A stretch of DNA of 63,272 nucleotides from an uncultured archaeon (lineage in GTDB: Archaea > Asgardarchaeota > Lokiarchaeia > Sigyniarchaeales > SOKP01), in assembly GCA_964583985.1 (NCBI GenBank), contig CAZOYD010000006.1:23858-87129 (forward strand). Reading direction: 5' to 3'. The notes beneath the pieces are model-generated. The model did not search any database and was not told the origin of the DNA. It was given only the letters and a program-made list of their open reading frames with translations. The translations under genes and the position numbers were made by a program. Of the stretch, positions 29,918 to 42,204 are shown one piece after another. Numbering within the stretch: the stretch's first letter is position 1; each line of letters starts with the position of its first letter.

Positions 29918-31393
29918 TTAATAGCTTTTAGCAATATAAACCGTGCATGTTGCGGGTTTTCCACAAATTAAACACGTTGCGAATTCATGTTTCTCTTCAT
30001 CCACTCTTTTACCTCTGACTTCCGCACCAATTTCTTTTTCAACAACTTCCGCGCAACTTTGACCATCTAAATCTATCGAACAAAAACCACAGACCACTAT
30101 TTTCCCGTTTTTAATGGCTTCAATCGCCGCGTCTTTTTCATATGTCAATTCAATTTGCGATTCGAAATCGATCATGGATTTTTCCTTGAGCTCTTTTGAA
30201 TAATTTTGAGCTATTTTATCTACAACTTTCTTTAATTCAGGATCTTTGACAAAAATCTTCTTTCCATCGTGTCTTTTTACTAAGACCATTTGCTTTTTCT
30301 CTACATCTCGTGGTCCGATTTCGATCCGAATCGGGACTCCTCTTAATTCCCAATAATAAAATTTACTTCCAGGAGATTCGTCAGACTCGTCGATTTTTAC
30401 TGTATACTTTTTCTTTAACCTTTCAAATATTTCTTTTGCTTTAGTGAGCACTATTTCCTCTTTTTCTTTGAAGAGTATTGGAATAATTACGATTTGAACT
30501 GGTGCTAAATCAAAAGGTAAAACAAGTCCATTATCATCTCCAAGATATGCAATCATGGCACCATAATTTCTACTTTGAGAAGGGCCATAACAAGTTTGAT
30601 AACCATATTTCTCTTCTCCATCCGTATCGACAAATTTTACCTCAAATGGTTTCGAGAAATTCTGTCCCAACAAGTGTGTTGAAGGTAATTGCAGAACCTT
30701 TCCAGATCCCATTAATGCATCAGCAGCATAGGTATGGACGGCTCCTGCAAATTTATCCCATTCCGGTCTTTGAAAAAAGATCATGGGAATACAACATTCG
30801 TCTTGAAGAATTTGATAGGTCGATTCCATGTCCTCTTTAACTTGTTCCATCGCATCCTCCATTGTGGCAAAAACATTGTGAGATTCGATCCAATGGAATT
30901 CTCTCCCTCTGAAGAAGGGTCTCGTCATCTTTCCCTCATATCTCCATACTTGGCACGAAAGATATCGTTTATAGGGTAGATCTTTATAACTCCGAATCCA
31001 CATGGAATACATTTTATACAAAGCAGTTTCACTTGTGGGGCGCAAGGCTAATCTTTCTGATAATTTTCCAGAAGTGCCCGCTTCAGTAACCCAAAATACT
31101 TCTGGAGCAAATCCCTCAACATGGGCTGCTTCCAATAAAAAATTAGATTCAGGGATGAGAGAAGGCATAGTTAATGGGAGGTGACCTTTTTCTTCCAACA
31201 AATCTTCAGTTTTTTTATACATTTTTCTAATCGTGATCGTAGCCCATTCTCTATAAACGACAAATCCTTTTATATTATAACGAATATCTGCCAACTCTGC
31301 CTTGTTTACTAGCTCCGTGTACCAGCCAGAAAAATCCTCTTCTTTAGATACTGTCATTCCGGTTAGGGGAGCTTCCTTTTTCTTTTTACCCAT
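29918..31393 (-). CDS. proS: proline--tRNA ligase (archaeal/eukaryotic type)
   Basis: FSGWY, LRPTSET, RGREFHW.E.H, HLLGQNFS, C-terminal Zn domain ending AKSY. Confidence 0.97.
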   Translation of the reverse strand: MGKKKKEAPLTGMTVSKEEDFSGWYTELVNKAELADIRYNIKGFVVYREWATITIRKMYKKTEDLLEEKGHLPLTMPSLIPESNFLLEAAHVEGFAPEVFWVTEAGTSGKLSERLALRPTSETALYKMYSMWIRSYKDLPYKRYLSCQVWRYEGKMTRPFFRGREFHWIESHNVFATMEDAMEQVKEDMESTYQILQDECCIPMIFFQRPEWDKFAGAVHTYAADALMGSGKVLQLPSTHLLGQNFSKPFEVKFVDTDGEEKYGYQTCYGPSQSRNYGAMIAYLGDDNGLVLPFDLAPVQIVIIPILFKEKEEIVLTKAKEIFERLKKKYTVKIDESDESPGSKFYYWELRGVPIRIEIGPRDVEKKQMVLVKRHDGKKIFVKDPELKKVVDKIAQNYSKELKEKSMIDFESQIELTYEKDAAIEAIKNGKIVVCGFCSIDLDGQSCAEVVEKEIGAEVRGKRVDEEKHEFATCLICGKPATCTVYIAKSY

Positions 31394-31469: not shown

Positions 31470-32255
31470 TCAATCAGGATTTAAATTGGCATTAGTAATA
31501 ATCGAACCCGTTAACATTTCCTTTCCTGTAAGGATATCTGATAGTTCTGCAATAAATATCATTGCTTCATAACCTTTAGAAACAAGGTAGGTTTTTATTT
31601 CCGTGCCAATCTCCTTTAATAATTCCTCATTTTCGGAGTAGACTGAATAATAAATGAGCGATTGAGGGTTTTCTATAAAATTTAATTGATTAATCATATC
31701 GCGATCCTTAAAGATAACTACTTCGTCCGCACCGGCCAAAGTTGCGACTTTTTTAATTTCTTCTTCTAATGGACCAAGCGTAAAGAACTGTCTCTCATGA
31801 ATCATCAATTTTTTCTCCAGAATTTCCTCTAGATGAGCTCTTGTCGTTTTATCATAAAATACTACTAGTTCTTGAGAACAGATCTCTTTATATTTTCCTG
31901 ATATTAGAGATTCCTTGTTATCTATGAATTCAATTAGCAATTCATAATATTTATCATCAAGCTTTTGAAAAGTCTCCACATTTCTAATAAAATCTGTTAA
32001 TTTGTCAATTAATTCGAAATAAAATTTCATTCGAGATTTAATTTGGAGCTTATATTCTAAACTCTTGATTTCAGGATAGTATTTTTTTAAGATCAGGTTT
32101 AAATCTTTATTACATTTGGCGCATAATGTAGCGATTTTGTCAGAATGCTTAATTGTTTTATCCTCGAGTAATTCTCTAATATCTTGCTCAACAAAAGATA
32201 AATTATCAAGTATGGTGAATATCTTTTCAGCGTATTTTTCTTCAATGTAAGACAT
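31470..32255 (-). CDS. hypothetical protein
   Basis: 261-aa ORF, co-oriented with its neighbours. Confidence 0.7.
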   Translation of the reverse strand: MSYIEEKYAEKIFTILDNLSFVEQDIRELLEDKTIKHSDKIATLCAKCNKDLNLILKKYYPEIKSLEYKLQIKSRMKFYFELIDKLTDFIRNVETFQKLDDKYYELLIEFIDNKESLISGKYKEICSQELVVFYDKTTRAHLEEILEKKLMIHERQFFTLGPLEEEIKKVATLAGADEVVIFKDRDMINQLNFIENPQSLIYYSVYSENEELLKEIGTEIKTYLVSKGYEAMIFIAELSDILTGKEMLTGSIITNANLNPD

Positions 32256-32325: not shown

Positions 32326-33549
32326 TTATAAGAAAAATAGAGACGCAGCGACCATTATTGCACCACTTATTATCGGTACCGTAAAATTATCGTTCATATC
32401 TAAAGTCAATAATTCAATGATTGGAGCAGAAATTCCCCCCAATATTAGGACTATTGGAGAAATATCTAATAGTTCATAAAGTAAATATCCGCAGATTAGC
32501 ACCACGCCCAAGTAAGCTAAAGATCCCTCTAAAGTCTTACCTAATATTTTATGCTTTCCAAACGCCAAACCAAAGAATTTTCCGAACGTATCACCAAAAA
32601 TGAGAAACGTGGTTGCTATAATTGCGATATTTTTAGGAAACACTATAAGTGTAATTATGTAAGCAACTAAATAAACGCTGATTGAGGAGAAATTCTTATG
32701 CTCTTTCTCTCTATATAATACATCAACTTTTTTACTGACCTCTTCACTTGAATTCGGCTTGTATTCTCCATATAATCTGATAAAATCAAGAATTATGAAA
32801 ATTGCTGCAAAAAGAGTTATGCTTATAAGAGAAATTACCAAAGAGAAAAATTCATAGAAAAATAGAAAGATAATTGACCCAAATCGTAGTACTATACGCC
32901 ATTTATGCCCCGTAAAACTTTCATTCTCTATTTTAATCTCAACTTCTGAAAAAAAATCTATAAAGGTAAATATAATAATATGAATAATAACGATTGAAAA
33001 CCAGATGTTAAAGAATAATAAATATTTCGGATAATGAATGAAAACAAACACGATCATCAGAGAGAATGAAGTGATTGGAATGAGATTAAATACTCTCGTA
33101 ATAAATGAAAATATCGTAGCCAATAAGATAAAATAAATTATCATAAAAAGGAAAACCAAATCTGTAGAACAATAGACTCCAACGTAAAATAGCCACATGC
33201 CAATTGCCGAAGCAACCCCTCTTCCCCCTCGAAAATTGAGGTAAAAAGGAAAGATATGACCGATGATGGTCATAAAACCACTAAATTGTGCCCAGATAAT
33301 ATCTAATCCCATTAACACGCTGAGAATTATGGCGATAAGCGCCTTAAAAATATCATACAACGCCGTAGGTACGGCATATTTCATTCCCAAAACCTTTAAA
33401 GTATTCGAAGTTCCTGCATTCTTAGTCCCCACTTCTCGAAGATCAATTTTTTTTACAATTCGACCAAAAATGTAGCCGGGATTTATGGTTCCGATTAAAT
33501 AGCCAATGATAAGGCTTGCTATAAACAGAAAAATTTCAATTGGATTCAC
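32326..33549 (-). CDS. PlsY (G3P acyltransferase) - CTP-dependent lipid kinase fusion, copy D
   Basis: GTKNAGTSN, GHIFPFYLNFRGGRGVA; GDTFGKFFGLAFGKHKI..KTLEGS, NDNFTVP. Confidence 0.88.
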   Translation of the reverse strand: MNPIEIFLFIASLIIGYLIGTINPGYIFGRIVKKIDLREVGTKNAGTSNTLKVLGMKYAVPTALYDIFKALIAIILSVLMGLDIIWAQFSGFMTIIGHIFPFYLNFRGGRGVASAIGMWLFYVGVYCSTDLVFLFMIIYFILLATIFSFITRVFNLIPITSFSLMIVFVFIHYPKYLLFFNIWFSIVIIHIIIFTFIDFFSEVEIKIENESFTGHKWRIVLRFGSIIFLFFYEFFSLVISLISITLFAAIFIILDFIRLYGEYKPNSSEEVSKKVDVLYREKEHKNFSSISVYLVAYIITLIVFPKNIAIIATTFLIFGDTFGKFFGLAFGKHKILGKTLEGSLAYLGVVLICGYLLYELLDISPIVLILGGISAPIIELLTLDMNDNFTVPIISGAIMVAASLFFL

Positions 33550-33668
33550 GTTAACACCTCACATAATAATAATGATATATAATAACTACTTATTCAACTG
33601 ACACTTATAAAATTCTACATAAGTATAATCCTATTATCTGTATCTATATTACATATAAAAATAATGGT

Positions 33669-33782
33669 TTAGTATAATCCTAGGAATAATCCAGCAAATA
33701 GCATGATGGGACCACTTATGATTGGTACTGTAAAATTATCATCCATTTCGAATGATAATAGTTTGAAAAAAGGGGCAGATAA
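33669..33782 (-). pseudogene. C-terminal remnant of a fifth PlsY-kinase paralog
   Basis: My translation LSAPFFKLLSFEMDDNFTVPIISGPIMLFAGLFLGLY* aligns with the ends of the four intact copies. Confidence 0.85.
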
Positions 33783-33874
33783 CTCTCTTAAAAGAAATTT
33801 AGACCAATGCAAATATTTATATTATCCGAAGTATATTTTGAAATTTAGAGGCTTTTTTTATACATATTTGTAAG

Positions 33875-34834
33875 GTGTATCCAATGGAATGTTTTTTTAG
33901 AGGAATTAATAAAAGAAATTGTATCTCGCTTTTAAGATGCGAAGGAGTTTACATATTAGCTAAAAAATTGGGAAGGACTGAAAAATTTGCTCGAGAGTAT
34001 TCTAAATATATCTTAAAGTTAACAGTACTCCATAAATTAAGAGATAAATATCGAGATTTTAAATCTAAAGGTCTCGTTTCTTATTTCAAGAAAATTATTA
34101 TGAAAGTATTGTATTATCTTTGCGCAAGTGTTTTTAAGGATACGTATCGACTTGAAAAACCGTTGAATTATATTGAATTTGAATTAGAAATGATGGAGAA
34201 GGAAAATAGCAATTCTAATCCAATGACTTATTATGAAAAGGTTGGAGAAGCATATGGATTGATATTTAAGAATGCACTTTTTGGAACTAAGACAAATGTC
34301 TCTATAAAAAAAGATTTAGAATCTCTTGGCAATTCTCTCGGGACTGTTGTTGCTCTCAGAGATTCAGTTATTGATTTAGAAGATGATATCAAGAAAAATA
34401 ACTTCAATCCATTTAAAGAATGGGAAAAAGAGGATATTAACTCGTTTTGTGGAAAAAATATAGGGTTAATAAAAGATAAAGTCGAAAAAATTAAAGAGAA
34501 AGATGTAGGGAAGTACAACGGAGAAAAAATAGGTCTCAATCTAAAATCAGTAATAGCTTCGACAATTTCCCCTGCTATAATGACCATTCCAAGTCTAACA
34601 CCAGCAAATTTAATGCAAACAACGCCTTGTAGCTATTGTTGTCAAGAATATATTTGTCCTAGTAATGTTTGCCTCCCCACTATAATAATCTTAGGAATAA
34701 CTGCTGTAATTATAACTATAGTTGTTTTAAGTACGAAAAAAGGAAGAGAGTGTTGTTCAGGTTGTGGTGGTGGAGGGTGTCCTGATTGTAGTGGATGTAA
34801 TTGTGATTGCGGTGACGGCAGTTGTAGTCAATAA
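33875..34834 (+). CDS. DUF5685-like protein with TM helix and Cys-rich tail
   Basis: LGNSLG...LRDSVIDLEDDIKKNNFNPF acidic motif; TM segment; CCSGCGGGGCPDCSGCNCDCGDGSC. Confidence 0.6.
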   Translation: MYPMECFFRGINKRNCISLLRCEGVYILAKKLGRTEKFAREYSKYILKLTVLHKLRDKYRDFKSKGLVSYFKKIIMKVLYYLCASVFKDTYRLEKPLNYIEFELEMMEKENSNSNPMTYYEKVGEAYGLIFKNALFGTKTNVSIKKDLESLGNSLGTVVALRDSVIDLEDDIKKNNFNPFKEWEKEDINSFCGKNIGLIKDKVEKIKEKDVGKYNGEKIGLNLKSVIASTISPAIMTIPSLTPANLMQTTPCSYCCQEYICPSNVCLPTIIILGITAVIITIVVLSTKKGRECCSGCGGGGCPDCSGCNCDCGDGSCSQ

Positions 34835-35263
34835 TTAAATGGCTTGTCGGGAAAACCTATTATTTTTTTAATCAATTTTTTTTATTCACAATATCTTTTG
34901 TATTAATTTGATATTAGTATTGGAAAGAACAGTTAATTTCAACACTCTCTTCTATTAAATAGTAAATCCACCGTTTGGGTCGATGGGATAGAGTTATTCG
35001 GACTGATTTCACAAATAGTACAACAAACCATTATTAGTATTATTATTTGAAATAAAATGAGTACATTTTTACTCTTTTTAATGATCTTACAGAATCTAAT
35101 GATTTTTATTTAAATTTCTTTCTATAGCTTTATTATTTCTGAGTGTATAAATCATTTAGAGGGATCAATGATATAGAGTTTTTCCTTATGAGAGTAATGA
35201 TATAATAGTCCTAGTGAAAAAAAAAGGGTTTTGATATTAAAAAAATAGTAGCATAATTTTGAT

Positions 35264-36478
35264 TTAAAGACCTACTAACATTGCACCATACATTACAGAA
35301 CCACTGATTATTGGTACAGTAAAATTTCCATTTATCTCAAATGATAAGAGTTCAGTACTGAACGCAGCAATTCCCCCTAAGATAAGCACAATTGGTGAAA
35401 TTTCCAATAAAGTAAACAATACAAATCCACATAAGCCAATACATCCCAAATAAGCTAAAGTTCCTTCAAAAGATTTATTTAAAATTTTATTGTGACCGAA
35501 TCCTAAACTAATAATTTTTTTAAATATATCACCAAAAATTAGAAATACAGTAGCGCTAAAAGCGATTTCTCGTGGAAAAATCATAATTGTAATGAAAAAA
35601 CCAACGATAAAAATACTAATCGACGAGAATATTTTTATCTCATCCTTCCTATAGAGAGAAGCATTTTCTCCTTCAGTCTCAGTGTTTTTCCAAAGAATTC
35701 TCTGAAGATCATTTGTAATAAAAATTACCCCAAAAATGTAAATTATGAATAAGGAAACACCTTTAGAAAATGCATCATAAACAATTAGGAAAGCTATGCC
35801 TAATAGTCGAAAGCTCATCCTTATCCAATCTTTTTTGAAGATTACACCCTTAAAAGAGAATTTCTTGCTAATTGCTGCAACATAGGTCGTATATCCAAAG
35901 AGAAAAGATAAAACCGCTAAAAAAAATATGTTAAACTCATTATACGGATAATATACCAAAACTCCATAACCTAAAAACGGAAGGGGAATCCAAACAAGCA
36001 TTCTAAGCACACCTGTAATATAAATAAATAATATCGCGATAAGGATCAAATAAAAACTAAGAAAAACCATCGTATAATCGGGAGGATCAGAGGTAACCAT
36101 ATACATTATGCAATAATAGAGCAACATACCTAATGATGTTGCCATTCCTTTTCCGCCTCGAAATTTTAGGTAAAATGGAAAACAATGTCCGATTATTGCT
36201 ATTATTCCACTAAATTGAGCAAAATAATCACTTACACCTAAACAAATTATTGAGATTACACATGCAATAAAACTTTTAGAAATATCATAAAAGCCTGTTA
36301 AAATTCCATATTTTTTTCCCAATTCATTCCACGCATTTGAAGTCCCAGGATTTTTTGTACCTGCTTCACGTAAATCTATACCCTTCATCCGCCCTATTAA
36401 ATAACCAGGGTTAATTGTACCGATTAAATAACCTATGATCAGACTTAGAATGAATAGAAATATTTCAATTGGAGTCAA
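35264..36478 (-). CDS. PlsY - lipid kinase fusion, copy C (likely TTG start 36478)
   Basis: GTKNPGTSN, GHCFPFYLKFRGGKG; GDIF...KSFEGT; AAGTGA SD and paralog alignment support the TTG start. Confidence 0.87.
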   Translation of the reverse strand: MTPIEIFLFILSLIIGYLIGTINPGYLIGRMKGIDLREAGTKNPGTSNAWNELGKKYGILTGFYDISKSFIACVISIICLGVSDYFAQFSGIIAIIGHCFPFYLKFRGGKGMATSLGMLLYYCIMYMVTSDPPDYTMVFLSFYLILIAILFIYITGVLRMLVWIPLPFLGYGVLVYYPYNEFNIFFLAVLSFLFGYTTYVAAISKKFSFKGVIFKKDWIRMSFRLLGIAFLIVYDAFSKGVSLFIIYIFGVIFITNDLQRILWKNTETEGENASLYRKDEIKIFSSISIFIVGFFITIMIFPREIAFSATVFLIFGDIFKKIISLGFGHNKILNKSFEGTLAYLGCIGLCGFVLFTLLEISPIVLILGGIAAFSTELLSFEINGNFTVPIISGSVMYGAMLVGL

Positions 36479-36637
36479 ATTATCACTTTCTTTTTGGATT
36501 ACAAATATTGTAAGCAATCCAATCTTATAAAAACGTTTTCAAAATCAAGTCATCTTACTGCTAAGACTGTTTAAAGATTATCAAATCGGTTATAAGTAGA
36601 AAACAGTAGTATAATAGTAGAAAAAGAAAAAATAATC

Positions 36638-37831
36638 TTACAAACCTGCTAGTGAAGCCGCACGCATTACAGTACCGCTTATTATAGATACTGTAAAGTT
36701 ATCGTTCATCTCAATTGAAAAGAGTTCAGTAATAGGCGCAGCAAGACCTCCCAAAATTAGAACAATTAAAGAAATATCCAATATGGTATACAATACATAT
36801 CCACATAGACACATGCATCCAAGGTAGGCAAGTGTCCCTTCAACTGTTTTATTCAATATCTTGTGGCGACCGAATCCAAATCCAAAAACTTTTCCAAAAA
36901 TATCACCAAAAATTAGAAAAGTATTAGCACTAAACGCGATTTCTCGAGGAAATACCAATATAGTAATGAAAAATGCCATGATATAAATGCTAATGGATGA
37001 AAATTTTTTTATCTCATCTTTCCTGTAGAATGAATCCTTTTCTCTTTCTACCTCAGTACTTCGCTTAAAAATTCTTCTAAAATCGAGTGAAATAAAGATT
37101 GCACCAAAGATGCTAATAATTAATAATGAAATCGCTTGAGAAAACACGTCGTAGAAGACTAGGAAAGCGATGGTTAGCAAGCGTAGTATCATTCTTATCC
37201 AATCTTTCTTAAAGATCTTATCCTTCAGAGGAAACTTCTTGTTAATCACTGCAGTATAAGTCACAAATACAAAAAGATACGTCAATACTGCAAGAAAGAA
37301 GAAATTAAATCCATTTCCAGGATAATAAACGTAACAAGCAAATCCTAAAATGGGAAACATTATCCAAGCAAGCATGCTTAATAAATGTGTAATATAAATA
37401 AATAGCATTGCGATGGACAGCAAAAATAAAACAAGATAAATCATCGTAAAATCATACGGAATAGATGTAGACATATACATGGAAACATAATAAGGTAACA
37501 TTCCTATAGCCGTTGCTACTCCTTTTCCCCCTCGAAATTTAAGGTAAAATGGAAAACAATGACCGATTATTGCCATCAATCCGCTAAATTGAGCATAATA
37601 ATAACTGACATCTAGAACATATATAGCAATAATACAAGCAATGAGACTTTTGAAAATATCATAAGCGGCTGTTAAAATCCCGTACTTCTTGCCAAGAGTA
37701 TGCCACACATTCGAAGTACCCGGATTTTTAGTTCCTACTTCCCGGATATCAATTCCTTTCATTCGACCAATCAAGTAACCCGAATTGATGCTACCTAAAA
37801 TGTAACCTATGATGATTGATATCACAAACAT
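36638..37831 (-). CDS. PlsY - lipid kinase fusion, copy B
   Basis: GTKNPGTSN, FRGGKGVAT; GDIFGKVFGFGFGRHK..KTVEGT, NDNFTV. Confidence 0.88.
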   Translation of the reverse strand: MFVISIIIGYILGSINSGYLIGRMKGIDIREVGTKNPGTSNVWHTLGKKYGILTAAYDIFKSLIACIIAIYVLDVSYYYAQFSGLMAIIGHCFPFYLKFRGGKGVATAIGMLPYYVSMYMSTSIPYDFTMIYLVLFLLSIAMLFIYITHLLSMLAWIMFPILGFACYVYYPGNGFNFFFLAVLTYLFVFVTYTAVINKKFPLKDKIFKKDWIRMILRLLTIAFLVFYDVFSQAISLLIISIFGAIFISLDFRRIFKRSTEVEREKDSFYRKDEIKKFSSISIYIMAFFITILVFPREIAFSANTFLIFGDIFGKVFGFGFGRHKILNKTVEGTLAYLGCMCLCGYVLYTILDISLIVLILGGLAAPITELFSIEMNDNFTVSIISGTVMRAASLAGL

Positions 37832-37933
37832 GAAGATCTCTATCAGAGTTAATTCTCACCTTCAATTTCGATCAAGAGCTTTTTAATAATAAATTAAGAA
37901 TGCAGATCTTATAAAAATGCATAGTCAATTTTT

Positions 37934-39142
37934 TCATAATCCCGCAAGAAAAACAACATACATTATCGCTCCGCTGAATATGGGCACCGTGATGTTATCG
38001 TTCATTCCCATGGAAAATAACTCGATTAGAGGAGCAGAAATTCCCCCGAAGATGAGGATGTAAGGTGATATGTCCAAAAGTGTATATAGAACGAAACTAC
38101 AGATTAAAATGCATCCAAAATATGCCAAGGTGCCCTCAACCGTTTTATTCAAGATTTTATGCCTACCGAATGCCAAGCCAAATACCTTACCAAAAGTATC
38201 CCCGAATATTAAAAATACACTTGCTGTAATAGCGATTTCTTTTGGAAATACGAGTATAGTGATGAAGAAGGCCGTGAGAAATATCGTCATTGAAGAAAAT
38301 GTATGATATTCGTTTTTTCGAAATAATTTTTTAACCTTTTCATGCAATAGCACGTTTGTCTGCTTATGCAAGAACCTTATCAAGTCCAGCAGGATGAATG
38401 CGATTGAAACAATTCCTATGATTATTAGAGCGATTTCTTGTGAAAACACCATGTAAAATACAACAAATAATATTGAAAATGGGCGAGTTAATACTCTCCA
38501 TTTGTGCCCCGTATAATTTTCATCCGTTATTTGAATAGTATTGCGCTTAATAACAGTGAATAATCCAATGAACGTGATATGTGCAAGGATGATCAAAAAG
38601 AATAAATTAAAAGGATTCCATGGATAAGTCACGAGGATAAAATACCCGAAAGGAGGAAGCAAGATAATGGATAGGATAGTTCCGCGTCGCGTTATATACG
38701 TAAAGATAACAACCAATACCACTTCAAAAATTATGAAATAAAACAAACTTGCAAAATTCAGTATAAAATAGATTATGATGTAAAATAACATCATTCCAGT
38801 GGCGGCGGCAACCCCCTGACCGCCTCGAAAGTTCATGTAAAATGGAAAAATATGGCCGACTATGGCCATTATTCCGCTTAGTTGAGCAAAGAAAAGAGGC
38901 ACGCCCAGCAACGTGGCGATATAAATCATGAATAATCCCTTAAACGCATCATAAAGAGCAGTTGGTGCAGCATATTTTAATCCTAAAACTTTATACGTAT
39001 TTGATGTTCCCGCATTTTTTGTACCATGTTCTCTTATATCTATTCCTTTCATTTTACCAAATAAGTATCCGGGATTAACAGAACCCATAAAATACCCCGC
39101 AATGCAGGACATTATTGATAGAAGAATTTCTAAGGGTTGCAT
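37934..39142 (-). CDS. PlsY - lipid kinase fusion, copy A
   Basis: GTKNAGTSN, GHIFPFYMNFRGGQGVA; GDTFGKVFGLAFGRHK..KTVEGT, NDNITVP. Confidence 0.88.
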   Translation of the reverse strand: MQPLEILLSIMSCIAGYFMGSVNPGYLFGKMKGIDIREHGTKNAGTSNTYKVLGLKYAAPTALYDAFKGLFMIYIATLLGVPLFFAQLSGIMAIVGHIFPFYMNFRGGQGVAAATGMMLFYIIIYFILNFASLFYFIIFEVVLVVIFTYITRRGTILSIILLPPFGYFILVTYPWNPFNLFFLIILAHITFIGLFTVIKRNTIQITDENYTGHKWRVLTRPFSILFVVFYMVFSQEIALIIIGIVSIAFILLDLIRFLHKQTNVLLHEKVKKLFRKNEYHTFSSMTIFLTAFFITILVFPKEIAITASVFLIFGDTFGKVFGLAFGRHKILNKTVEGTLAYFGCILICSFVLYTLLDISPYILIFGGISAPLIELFSMGMNDNITVPIFSGAIMYVVFLAGL

Positions 39143-39431: not shown

Positions 39432-40373
39432 TTAGGATAATTTCATCTTAATTTGTTTGGAACGGCTTCTTAACGTAACCTCGGTAACCTTGGCCACGTT
39501 AGAAACTTCCGCTTGCGTCTTTCGACAATCACTTGCTTTAGCAGCCATGTATATTACACTTGCGGCTAAGCCTTTTGGATCTTTTCCAGTACGAAGTAAT
39601 CCATTTTTGGATGCTTCTCTTAGCATGTCAATTGCTTTCTTTTGAACCTCCATGGATAAGTCTAAATCGTTTCCAAATCGAAATACTAAAGCTTCAGCAG
39701 TAATGGGTTTATATCTCAAATTTAGTTCAGGTAAGACTTCCTTTACAATCATGCCTAATGAACGATGGACTGTTCTACGAGGAGTCATCGAGGAATCGCA
39801 TACTTCTTCTAAGAGTCGTGGGAATTCATGTACTCTGATTGCGGCATATAAGGAAGCAGCAATAAAACCATCAATTGATCTACCCATTGTTAACTTCTTT
39901 TTAGCTACGACACTATAGATTTTCCAAGCTGTTTCTTTTATGTGCTCTGGAATGTTCATTTTAGATGTGAGCATTTTAAGCTTAGGTTTTGCTTCCCAAA
40001 AGTTCCTTTCAATGCTTGAAATCAAAGAGTTTTGGATTTTCGATAGTCTTGAGAACAGGGTTTTTCCTTTTGCATTAATTAAGCGTCCTTTGCTGTCAAT
40101 TTTCGTGTTTGGCAGCATGGTGCGAGGGCCGAATTCCCTCCAGCGCGGTTCGGTCCTGCGGCGCTTGTTCACCTCTTCTACGGTATAAGCTCTTCTCTCA
40201 TTGCCCACAAGATTGCGAGAAACAATCATTCCGCAGTTTAGACACACGTTATCCCCATCTTTGGATTCTATGCAGGGATTTTCGCAGCATTCTTCAAAAC
40301 CTGTAGTGCAACTATCCTCCTCATCCTTCACTGGTCGAGTGCTCCGCAAGCGGTCTTTATAATTGGTTGTCAT
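39432..40373 (-). CDS. tfb: transcription initiation factor IIB
   Basis: Zn ribbon VCLNCG, two cyclin repeats, GRSI, GKDPKGLAA, VTEVTLR. Confidence 0.95.
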   Translation of the reverse strand: MTTNYKDRLRSTRPVKDEEDSCTTGFEECCENPCIESKDGDNVCLNCGMIVSRNLVGNERRAYTVEEVNKRRRTEPRWREFGPRTMLPNTKIDSKGRLINAKGKTLFSRLSKIQNSLISSIERNFWEAKPKLKMLTSKMNIPEHIKETAWKIYSVVAKKKLTMGRSIDGFIAASLYAAIRVHEFPRLLEEVCDSSMTPRRTVHRSLGMIVKEVLPELNLRYKPITAEALVFRFGNDLDLSMEVQKKAIDMLREASKNGLLRTGKDPKGLAASVIYMAAKASDCRKTQAEVSNVAKVTEVTLRSRSKQIKMKLS

Positions 40374-40911: not shown

Positions 40912-42204
40912 TTATTCTATAAAATGAGGGATGACTTGAGGACCATTAGGCAGTATTAAGATGCGAGCATCTGGACCATGTTTTTTTAAGGCATTAGAAA
41001 TAGCATTCTCTACTGTCTGAGCATGTTTTAATCCAATCTTGCCTAATTCAGCTTCTCTAAGAGTTGATACCACGTAGATCTCAGCTTTTTGAAGGATTCG
41101 TGCTAAAACTTGGATTTCCCATTGATCTGGTACAATAATTTCCTTATTTAATATCTTATCATGCATTTCTTTCGGGCTCATTTCGGAATAGAGAAGTTCC
41201 TTAAATTTTTCTTGTCCTATACCATCAACACATTCATTTACAGATATGATGGTCCCTCCCTGTTTAACTCCCAACTCACCTATCGCCATGCTTTTAACCG
41301 CTTGATAGAGATTTAAATCGAGAGGAAATCCCCCATTACCACATACTACAATGTCATATGGTCTTTTTATTGGGCTAAATATCTTTTTTAATTGATATTG
41401 AACAAGGTGATCATGGGCGTCTTCTAATGATCCTGTTGCTATACTTGTTATATTATGGTGTTCCTCAATGCATACATTGACAATAAAATCAACTCCTGCG
41501 AGACGTGCAATCTCCATGGAGTTTACGTGCATTGGATTTTCGCGATATTTCCCAAATCGCGAATATTTTGAAGCGATTAATTGAGCGGAATGATTTGCCT
41601 GGATAGTGCTTGCACCCGCTATTCCAGGAACTATTGATTTGCAACCCCCAGAAAAACCAAAAAAGAAATGAGGTTCTACATATCCAGTTAAAATCTTGAT
41701 ATCACTTTCAAGATAATGTTTGTTTATATAGATGGGGATTCCTTTTTTAGATTCTCCTAAATAAGAGAGAACGTTCATATCAGTCGCTAAATGATCTCTA
41801 CATTCTATTCTTCCGTAAAGATTTTGCCCCATAATCTTTTCTCGTTCTGCTTCTCGAGATGGTCTATGAAGTCCAGTTGCTATTAGGATGATAATTTGGG
41901 AATCCATTATTCCGTAATTATTAAGTTCATTGATTAAAGCTTCCAATATGAAGTGAGAGGGTACTGGACGAGTAGAATCTGAAGAAACTATACAAACTTT
42001 TCGCACGTGCCTTTTTCCCTTTATAATTTGTTCAAGTGATGCTGATCCCACTGGATGATTAATTTCATCCTGAATCACTTGAACCGGGTTGTTCACTATT
42101 TTTTGAGGGTTTGGTCTGAGTACCTCTACGTTCCATTTAGGATCCATACTTATTGTAAGCCCTTTTTTTCCATAATCTACTATTAATTTGATATCCAAAC
42201 CCAC
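40912..42204 (-). CDS. larA: nickel-pincer lactate racemase family
   Basis: SDSTRPVP, ATGLHR, EPHFFFGFSGGCKSIVPG, DLNLYQAVK, DQW. Confidence 0.92.
   Translation of the reverse strand: MGLDIKLIVDYGKKGLTISMDPKWNVEVLRPNPQKIVNNPVQVIQDEINHPVGSASLEQIIKGKRHVRKVCIVSSDSTRPVPSHFILEALINELNNYGIMDSQIIILIATGLHRPSREAEREKIMGQNLYGRIECRDHLATDMNVLSYLGESKKGIPIYINKHYLESDIKILTGYVEPHFFFGFSGGCKSIVPGIAGASTIQANHSAQLIASKYSRFGKYRENPMHVNSMEIARLAGVDFIVNVCIEEHHNITSIATGSLEDAHDHLVQYQLKKIFSPIKRPYDIVVCGNGGFPLDLNLYQAVKSMAIGELGVKQGGTIISVNECVDGIGQEKFKELLYSEMSPKEMHDKILNKEIIVPDQWEIQVLARILQKAEIYVVSTLREAELGKIGLKHAQTVENAISNALKKHGPDARILILPNGPQVIPHFIE

Follow-up and report, generated by a model that had tools for sequence, protein, structure and literature searches.

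Bacterial PlsY acylates glycerol 3-phosphate (G3P) from acyl-phosphate, for which two routes are known, through PlsX and through FakA/FakB; the characterised members of the SEC59/DGK1/VTE5 kinase family phosphorylate lipids using cytidine triphosphate (CTP), their known substrates being lipid alcohols (dolichol, phytol, prenols and diacylglycerol). That Lokiarchaeota and Thorarchaeota encode homologs of PlsY is well established (PMC6737245, PMC6431249, PMC13400652); these genes have repeatedly been cited as evidence for a capacity of Asgard archaea to make bacterial-type ester lipids, and thereby as relevant to the lipid divide in eukaryogenesis (PMC6737245, PMC6431249, PMC13400652, PMC12993045). 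Here we analyse a 63,272-nucleotide stretch of DNA from an uncultured archaeon (contig CAZOYD010000006.1, positions 23,858 to 87,129; hereafter the window), in which an array of four genes encodes proteins with an N-terminal PlsY-like domain joined to a C-terminal domain of the CTP_transf_1 type. The window is part of an 87-kb contig in a 3.8 Mb genome rated 100% complete with 5.25% contamination.

The families of both domains are known; their coupling is a variant that has not been described. Databases name these fusions simply 'glycerol-3-phosphate acyltransferase', and we found no paper in the open-access literature on the PlsY/kinase fusion, on the loss of PlsY motif 3 or on the linkage to a kinase. 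The conserved pair represents a so far undescribed lipid module of two enzymes that is open to test. Many uncultured lineages possess it, DPANN and the candidate phyla radiation (CPR) among them, and it bears on the lipid supply of these two, a standing question.

The two modules of the fusions

The array comprises four minus-strand open reading frames of 397-417 aa, each with both domains in the same order:

32326-33549, minus strand: copy 1, 407 aa, GTG start; PlsY-like domain at about 32950-33549, kinase-like domain at about 32329-32922
35264-36517, minus strand: copy 2, 417 aa, TTG start; PlsY-like domain at about 35876-36517, kinase-like domain at about 35267-35854
36638-37831, minus strand: copy 3, 397 aa; PlsY-like domain at about 37244-37831, kinase-like domain at about 36641-37219
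37934-39142, minus strand: copy 4, 402 aa; PlsY-like domain at about 38552-39142, kinase-like domain at about 37937-38527

Pairwise identity among the copies is 48-67%; copies 2-4 are each 48-52% identical to copy 1, whilst copies 2 and 3 share 67%, the highest figure given in the array. The true start of copy 2 probably lies about 13 codons downstream of the annotated TTG, because some 13 extra N-terminal residues are not found in its relatives. An earlier reading of the DNA letters (the sequence-only reading) had described four co-oriented paralogs of about 400 aa carrying the motifs of both families, and this description is confirmed, with the addition that a DUF5685 gene on the opposite strand interrupts the array. 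The motifs that it quoted are seen, in the form GTKN[AP]GTSN and GH.FPFY..FRGG.G for PlsY, and FGD..[GK]K, FG.[HN]K, K[TS].EG and N[DG]N.TV for the kinase.

Pfam PF02660 (PlsY) matches all four copies over residues ~1-195 (E 1e-28 to 3e-38) at 100-132 bits, well above the gathering cut-off of 24.1, and these are the only PF02660 matches in the genome; the matches stop at position 149-159 of the 164-position profile. Against the NCBIfam equivalog model for PlsY (TIGR00023) all four score 97-107 bits, below its cut-off of 137.2. Copy 3, the copy used for structure modelling, aligns gap-free with 103 residues of Aquifex PlsY (5xj5; phmmer E 8.5e-25). The full-length AlphaFold model of this copy, built with 50 homologs, has a mean predicted local distance difference test score (pLDDT) of 86 and a predicted template modelling score (pTM) of 0.79; a Foldseek search with it returned 5xj5-5xj8 (E 6e-6 to 3e-5, target-normalised TM 0.68-0.73) and no fold other than PlsY below E 0.3. 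As modelled, the N-terminal module has the seven-transmembrane-helix PlsY fold.

In PlsY from Aquifex aeolicus (aaPlsY) the acyl-phosphate site is formed by His92, Thr41 and the backbone amides of Lys104-Ala107, the phosphate of G3P is clamped by Ser35, Arg45, Lys104 and Asn180, and its 2-hydroxyl is held by Ser142 and His177; His177 and Asn180 sit in motif 3 (PMC5700162). The S35T variant has 17% activity, R45K less than 10%, K104R 25% and T41S half, and no substitute tried for His177 was tolerated (PMC5700162). We surveyed these positions in 50 Asgard fusions (aaPlsY numbering). On the donor side H92, G102, G103, G105 and N42 are invariant in all 50, and the T41 position is S in 36 and T in 6. 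The clamp positions vary: S35 is replaced by T in 39 and by D in 7 (S in 4), R45 reads K in 24, H in 14 and R in 9, and K104 reads Q in 27, K in 18, R in 4 and E in one. In the window S35 is T throughout, and the four copies between them read H/K/N/K at R45 and K/R/K/Q at K104 (K and R, respectively, in copy 1; H, with the lysine retained, in copy 3; K and Q in copy 4). Motif 3 (His177..Asn180; RH..NI.RL), which E. coli PlsY has, is absent from every kinase-linked PlsY examined; in a MAFFT alignment nothing in the final helix of the fused proteins corresponds to the E. coli sequence LRHHDNIQRL, and Asn180 has no equivalent.

Judged by these residues, the acyl-phosphate 'phosphate hole' (His92 and the GG.G loop) is retained in the N-terminal module, whilst the predicted G3P-holding residues (motif 3, Arg45, Lys104 and Ser35) are lost or degraded, and the module is on this footing not a canonical PlsY. 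The domain identities proposed by the sequence-only reading hold as far as a PlsY-like and a kinase-type domain are concerned, but not in the sense of an ordinary PlsY, given motif 3, the clamp and the TIGR00023 score.

A function as an ordinary bacterial-type PlsY, acylating G3P (or glycerol 1-phosphate, G1P) from acyl-phosphate to give lysophosphatidate for ester phospholipids, with the C-terminal domain as an accessory, is to our minds quite improbable. The Pfam match above the gathering score, the well conserved motifs 1 and 2, the gap-free alignment with aaPlsY and the PlsC-like acyltransferases encoded in the genome all speak for it, and bacterial PlsY can, according to PMC13400652, take both glycerol phosphate stereoisomers. 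Set against this are the missing motif 3, the impairment of aaPlsY by R45K, S35T and changes to His177 (PMC5700162), the glutamine at K104 in 27 of the 50 fusions, and the shortfall of all four copies from the TIGR00023 cut-off. Moreover, a canonical PlsY is retained separately by most bacteria that have the paralog, other Asgard families possess a true stand-alone PlsY with motif 3, and the fusion is missing from 13 of the 28 genomes of its own family.

The assignment of the C-terminal module required weaker signals to be combined. Over the C-terminal ~200 aa, Pfam CTP_transf_1 (PF01148) matches copy 3 at 24.1 bits (cut-off 24) and copy 1 with E 7e-3, but not copies 2 and 4, and 5 of 31 relatives match it at E<=0.01; NCBIfam gave no meaningful match on the C-domains, and a C-domain profile run against the sequences of solved structures returned nothing at E<=10. 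With a C-domain-only model (pLDDT 77), an exhaustive VIA search placed TmCdsA (4q2e) first of 48,161 chains (Z 8.6, 173/203 residues, root-mean-square deviation 6.9), a Z score that is modest for a helical protein, although the coverage of the domain is far above that of any other row; a Foldseek search of the C-domain against the PDB found nothing below E 0.26. Fold matches in the ESM Atlas (TM 0.74-0.81) were to clusters named 'phosphatidate cytidylyltransferase family' and 'phytol kinase family protein', and a feature search there (scores of 0.88) is no more than a lead.

Profile alignments with three CTP_transf_1 superfamily proteins were more discriminating. One of these is a separate DolK-like protein of the same genome (378 aa; SDAAAALVGRSFGKHK...KSIEG...ADN), encoded upstream of the window:

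C6:13663-14145 (L005:1354-2487), about 10 kb before the window start: DolK-like gene

By hhalign, the C-domain aligns with this DolK-like protein at 64% probability over 134 columns, covering both the GD..FG.HK..K[ST].EG and the DN blocks (BLASTP E 0.07), with E. coli CdsA at 30% over 59 columns (168-233 of 285), comprising the central block alone, and with the genome's CarS at 1.8%. The C-terminal part of CdsA, beyond this alignment, carries the cytidylyltransferase signature. For stand-alone homologs (~36% identity) NCBI gives the names 'SEC59/DGK1/VTE5 family protein' and 'diacylglycerol/polyprenol kinase family protein', whereas JGI uses 'dolichol kinase'. By fold, motifs and profile alignment the C-domain is a SEC59/DGK1/VTE5-type member of the CTP_transf_1 superfamily, although Pfam places it there only at the threshold, and it is not CdsA or CarS; because its alignment is longer and better with the DolK-like protein than with CdsA or CarS, and because of the kinase-family names, it is not a CDP-diglyceride synthase, the alternative that the sequence-only reading had set against its own assignment to the kinase family.

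Among the bacterial, DPANN and Asgard members the aspartate of the GD motif is invariant, as are the EG and DN pairs. The same reading had credited every copy with the kinase signature, which is true of copies 1, 3 and 4, where the motifs are intact; in copy 2 they have degenerated to GDIFKK, FGHNK and NGN, the last of which has lost the aspartate of an NDN that is invariant elsewhere, and some close relatives of copy 2 have NEN for NDN, or GG for GD. From these substitutions the kinase module of copy 2 is probably weakened. Loss of catalysis in one or both modules, with a non-enzymatic role such as lipid binding or transport, would account for this pattern in copy 2 and its relatives as well as for the lost acceptor-site residues. 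We nonetheless regard it as very improbable for the family, as most copies retain, in both modules, all of the residues that are invariant across bacteria, DPANN and Asgard archaea, and the pairing is kept across phyla in three gene arrangements.

Pairing of the modules across phyla

The C-domain profile retrieved 3,716 representative proteins at E<=1e-3, some of them fusions of ~400 aa and others stand-alone proteins of ~190 aa. In Woesearchaeota contigs the stand-alone kinase gene lies directly downstream of a separate plsY, and on one bacterial contig plsY is followed by the kinase gene with overlapping stop and start codons. A locus scan covered one genome per GTDB species, with our own hidden Markov model search applied to the best 80 loci. 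Five of these are fusions (Hermodarchaeota, Pacearchaeota, Saccharibacteria, a Clostridia-type bin and one further archaeon); in six, plsY abuts the kinase gene upstream (Acidobacteria, WOR-3 and other bins); in another five, all from Caldisericota, the order is reversed, with the kinase gene abutting upstream of plsY; and in one, plsY lies ~600 bp upstream of the kinase gene. In the remaining 63, from Eisenbacteria, Zixibacteria, Marinimicrobia and other groups, PlsY is lacking within 3 kb. The pair of PlsY-like protein and kinase recurs in Asgard archaea, DPANN, CPR, WOR-3, Caldisericota and Acidobacteria, and its occurrence in three arrangements in unrelated phyla is good evidence that both modules work together.

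A 5.8-kb contig of the Clostridia-type bin (G011 C123; L156 1598-5792) carries, all in the same direction, the fusion, a second PlsY-like gene, FakA (with Dak2, FakA-like_M and FakA-like_C domains) and DegV, with stop/start overlaps at the PlsY-like/FakA and FakA/DegV junctions. This operon-like row, a single case, ties the paralog to fatty-acid activation and acyl-phosphate. Upstream on the opposite strand of the same contig lie a Cas6 gene and a nucleotidyltransferase/HEPN gene. DegV near PlsY-like genes in a Caldisericales genome was considered as a further link and dropped, the genes between them being unrelated (a sigma factor, GlmM/GlmS-like proteins and a two-component system).

Maximum-likelihood analysis placed the Asgard N-domains in a single clade (support 100/99), nested in a cluster (98/96) with the linked copies of Caldisericota, CPR and DPANN and set apart from the canonical cluster; several branches are long, and the deep order is unsafe. 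Monophyly of kinase-linked PlsY as a whole is not supported, the WOR-3-type linked copies lying nearer to the canonical cluster. Caldisericota genomes (G009 and G012-G015; e.g. L132, L137, L142 and L147) additionally hold a third PlsY-like group of ~215 aa (tail ...KREWPIAYEKYVKKYFHRS), which has no kinase neighbour and forms its own well-supported clade.

Within the GTDB phylum of the window, PF02660 matches occur in 48 of 150 genomes, and in 15 of 28 in its family and 10 of 13 in its genus. One or two copies per genome is usual; four is the most seen for the fused type. This patchiness, even within a genus, argues against bulk membrane synthesis and suggests an accessory role in salvage or remodelling. 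Two other families of the phylum encode a stand-alone PlsY of ~240 aa that covers the whole profile and includes motif 3 (YYRHRDNIGRL, IWRHRENVSRL), with no kinase domain beside the gene; these proteins reach 180 bits (G054:C1:2063676-2064275 and G043:C43:20125-20718; L150, L152). Two further PlsY-like paralogs are carried by these families as well, and PlsX was not found in their genomes; besides the present genome, it was absent from 12 Asgard genomes, of the fused and of the stand-alone kind alike.

As the fusion is a different paralog, lacking the G3P-binding motif and tied to a kinase, the genomic case for ester phospholipids in this lineage is weaker than has been assumed, even though other families of Asgard archaea do encode a true PlsY that stands alone. 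The frequently cited 'bacterial PlsY' genes are probably part of a lipid pathway that has yet to be described, and not of ordinary bacterial membrane synthesis.

Donor, acceptor and order of the reactions

Neither PlsX, nor DegV/FakB, nor Dak2/FakA was found in this genome. A convincing GpsA was not found in it either, nor was a glycerol-1-phosphate dehydrogenase (G1PDH) above the NCBIfam cut-off, Fe-ADH_2 matches having been rejected for that role as ordinary alcohol dehydrogenases; the best FGGY kinase is under the cut-off of both the GlpK and the XylB model. GGGPS and CarS are present despite the lack of a clear G1PDH, GpsA or GlpK. Two PlsC-like acyltransferase genes were found outside the window: one encodes a 550-aa protein with two PlsC-type domains (AGPAT, TIGR00530; contig C14:48632-51420, L006:490-2139), and close to it is the gene of a 229-aa PlsC-like protein (L008:1324-2010). 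The former adjoins a HAD hydrolase, and the latter is next to a gene with a toxin-deaminase domain. The genome's complement accordingly agrees with what the sequence-only reading had supposed for this archaeon, namely that the kinase may stand in for PlsX or FakAB.

Fusion or tight coupling of membrane enzymes usually signals consecutive steps. We tentatively favour, as a reading that still falls short of probable, one in which a lipid phosphate (in the simplest case acyl-phosphate) comes from the kinase and serves the PlsY-like module as donor for transfer to an acceptor whose binding differs from that of G3P. Each gene would, from its predicted domains, encode one polytopic membrane protein with two catalytic modules that act consecutively on one lipid at the cytoplasmic face. 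The kinase module would convert free fatty acid and CTP to acyl-phosphate, and this labile donor would be handed straight to the PlsY-like module, which would pass the acyl group to an acceptor other than G3P, or to G3P held in a non-canonical manner. The kinase is the most economical maker of the donor because this archaeon has no PlsX, FakA or FakB. PlsY has its N-terminus outside and its C-terminus inside; from this topology, the abundance of K and R in the linker and loops and the number of helices in the model, the motifs of both modules should face the cytoplasm. The four paralogs may differ in acceptor or chain preference, since their acceptor-side residues differ (R45 and K104 positions, above).

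Several observations weigh against this proposal. To our knowledge, no member of the SEC59/DGK1/VTE5 family phosphorylates a carboxylate. A PlsY-like module with no motif 3, and often with glutamine at K104, may even lack acyltransferase activity altogether. The genes that adjoin the fusions in Asgard archaea (TFB, a protein of 261-aa type and prolyl-tRNA synthetase) give no hint of a substrate. The one cultured Lokiarchaeon cited in PMC13400652, a strain that may or may not carry the fusion, is reported there with archaeal lipids only. PlsX is present in all 15 bacterial genomes with a linked or fused pair that were tested, the only tested genomes with the pair but without PlsX being three archaeal ones, and an anticorrelation between the pair and PlsX is ruled out. 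DegV/FakB showed no clean pattern, occurring in Caldisericota and one Clostridia-type bin and in no other tested genome; some bacterial carriers have FakA/DegV, even beside the fusion. Most bacterial genomes with the pair also encode a separate canonical PlsY (164-178 bits, whole Pfam profile) with motif 3 (e.g. SHRENIKRL, CRHIPNIKRL) and no adjoining kinase gene, whereas their kinase-linked copies score 105-132 bits and lack motif 3. In carriers with PlsX, acyl-phosphate is already on hand, so that the kinase module needs another job there. As the bacteria keep both PlsX and canonical PlsY, replacement of PlsX, which the sequence-only reading had offered for the fused kinase, does not stand as the general role of the family.

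In the main rival reading the order is reversed: the PlsY-like module would acylate an unphosphorylated alcohol (glycerol or a lipid alcohol), and the kinase would phosphorylate the product with CTP, for example monoacylglycerol to lysophosphatidate, bypassing G3P. Each module would then stay within the chemistry of its family, the kinase family acting on lipid hydroxyls, and the part of the PlsY-like module that has decayed is the acceptor phosphate clamp, as expected for an acceptor without a phosphate. Dgk1 is a CTP-dependent diacylglycerol kinase (PMC2459266). The tested bacterial carriers have PlsX, and some FakA/DegV, to provide the acyl-phosphate, in one case from the same gene row, and the lack of a clear G1PDH, GpsA or GlpK in the present genome points the same way. 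In the archaeal carriers, however (this genome, other Asgard archaea and Pacearchaeota), no acyl-phosphate source is recognisable, which would leave the first step without a donor; and R45 being mostly K, H or R, with S35 replaced by T, some phosphate binding may remain. The reversed order fits bacteria with PlsX or FakAB better than it fits archaea, and we consider it rather unlikely.

A role in the salvage of isoprenoid alcohols, with the C-domain as a prenol or polyprenol kinase, like the dolichol, phytol and farnesol kinases, and the PlsY-like half either as the variable N-terminal membrane domain that such kinases require or as a prenyl-phosphate transferase, seems to us unlikely as well. 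Such a role would suit the known substrates of the kinase family, which include isoprenoid alcohols, the isoprenoid nature of archaeal membranes, the presence of GGGPS and CarS, and the DPANN and CPR carriers, which probably take up lipids from other organisms. Dolichol kinases, too, consist of a conserved catalytic C-domain with species-specific N-domains that boost activity (PMC11542857). The genome, however, already has its separate DolK-like protein, and with it a dedicated polyprenol-kinase candidate besides the four fusions; the strictly invariant donor-site residues of the PlsY-like half favour catalysis over a scaffold; WOR-3, DPANN and Caldisericota encode the halves as separate polypeptides; one bacterium has the fusion linked to FakA/DegV; and a monophosphate is a poor leaving group for prenyl transfer.

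If the kinase does make the donor, as we tentatively prefer, the pair could be a self-contained, CTP-driven machine for lipid activation and transfer, and a third route to acyl-phosphate, by which scavenged fatty acids would be ester-linked onto a non-G3P acceptor, possibly an archaeal backbone, to give hybrid lipids; this extension we consider doubtful. Its users would be lipid-scavenging archaea and bacteria (Asgard, DPANN, CPR and others), a generalisation that we offer with similar reserve. The suggestion that the fusions bear on the archaeal-to-eukaryotic lipid transition is not supported, as nothing in our analysis ties them to the lipids of eukaryotes in particular; nor did the published trees show such a tie (PMC6431249).

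The locus and the nearest described systems

Besides the fusions, the locus comprises:

29918-31393, minus strand: prolyl-tRNA synthetase (ProRS, archaeal), conserved downstream flank
31470-32255, minus strand: conserved neighbour of 261 aa without a Pfam match, between the array and ProRS
33875-34834, plus strand: DUF5685 gene, 319 aa, between copies 1 and 2, where it breaks the array
39432-40373, minus strand: TFIIB/TFB, conserved upstream flank
40912-42204, minus strand: homolog of LarA-type lactate racemase (Lar_N and LarA_C)

The order TFB, fusion(s), 261-aa-type protein, ProRS is kept in other Asgard genomes, including one with three copies of the fusion and one closed genome with a single copy; the counterparts of the 261-aa neighbour between array and ProRS in related Asgard genomes are of 263 and 248 aa. 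The DUF5685 gene is absent from the uninterrupted three-copy array of a related metagenome-assembled genome; its product ends in a Cys/Gly-rich tail (CCSGCGGGGCPDCSGCNCDCGDGSC). The lactate racemase homolog adjoins TFB and appears unrelated to the fusions. An archaeal host, as the sequence-only reading supposed, is borne out by the TFB and archaeal ProRS genes that flank the array and by homologs named after Asgard groups; because the close homologs carry the names Promethearchaeota, Lokiarchaeota, Hermodarchaeota, Thorarchaeota and Odinarchaeota, we take the source to be an Asgard archaeon.

Comparison with PlsY (PF02660, TIGR00023; Aquifex aeolicus structures 5XJ5-5XJ9) shows a common 7-transmembrane fold, motifs 1 and 2, His92 and the Gly-rich loop; the fusion N-domain differs in having no motif 3, a degenerate clamp and a score below the equivalog cut-off, in always being paired with a kinase, and in that most of the tested bacterial genomes have a true PlsY besides the kinase-linked copy. 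With the SEC59/DGK1/VTE5 kinases the C-domain shares the motifs RK..R/H, GD, FG.HK, K[ST].EG and E...[DN]DN and a CdsA-like fold, and with dolichol kinase the placing of a ~200-aa catalytic domain C-terminal to another membrane domain, whereas its Pfam scores are borderline and its N-terminal partner is a PlsY-like enzyme. The distant BLASTP match to the genome's own DolK-like protein marks the fusion C-domains as a distinct subfamily. CdsA and CarS belong to the same superfamily and have the same overall fold, 4q2e being the best solved match, and E. coli CdsA has the central D..G..FG.HK motif in common with the C-domain; the alignment with CdsA, however, ends before its C-terminal part, whilst CarS shows no similarity to the C-domain and is encoded separately in the genome. 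PlsX and FakA/FakB have no relation to the kinase module in sequence or fold, and the module would differ from them in using CTP at a membrane-embedded site; if the kinase is indeed the source of the donor, it would fill the same role that they do, that of feeding a PlsY-type enzyme.

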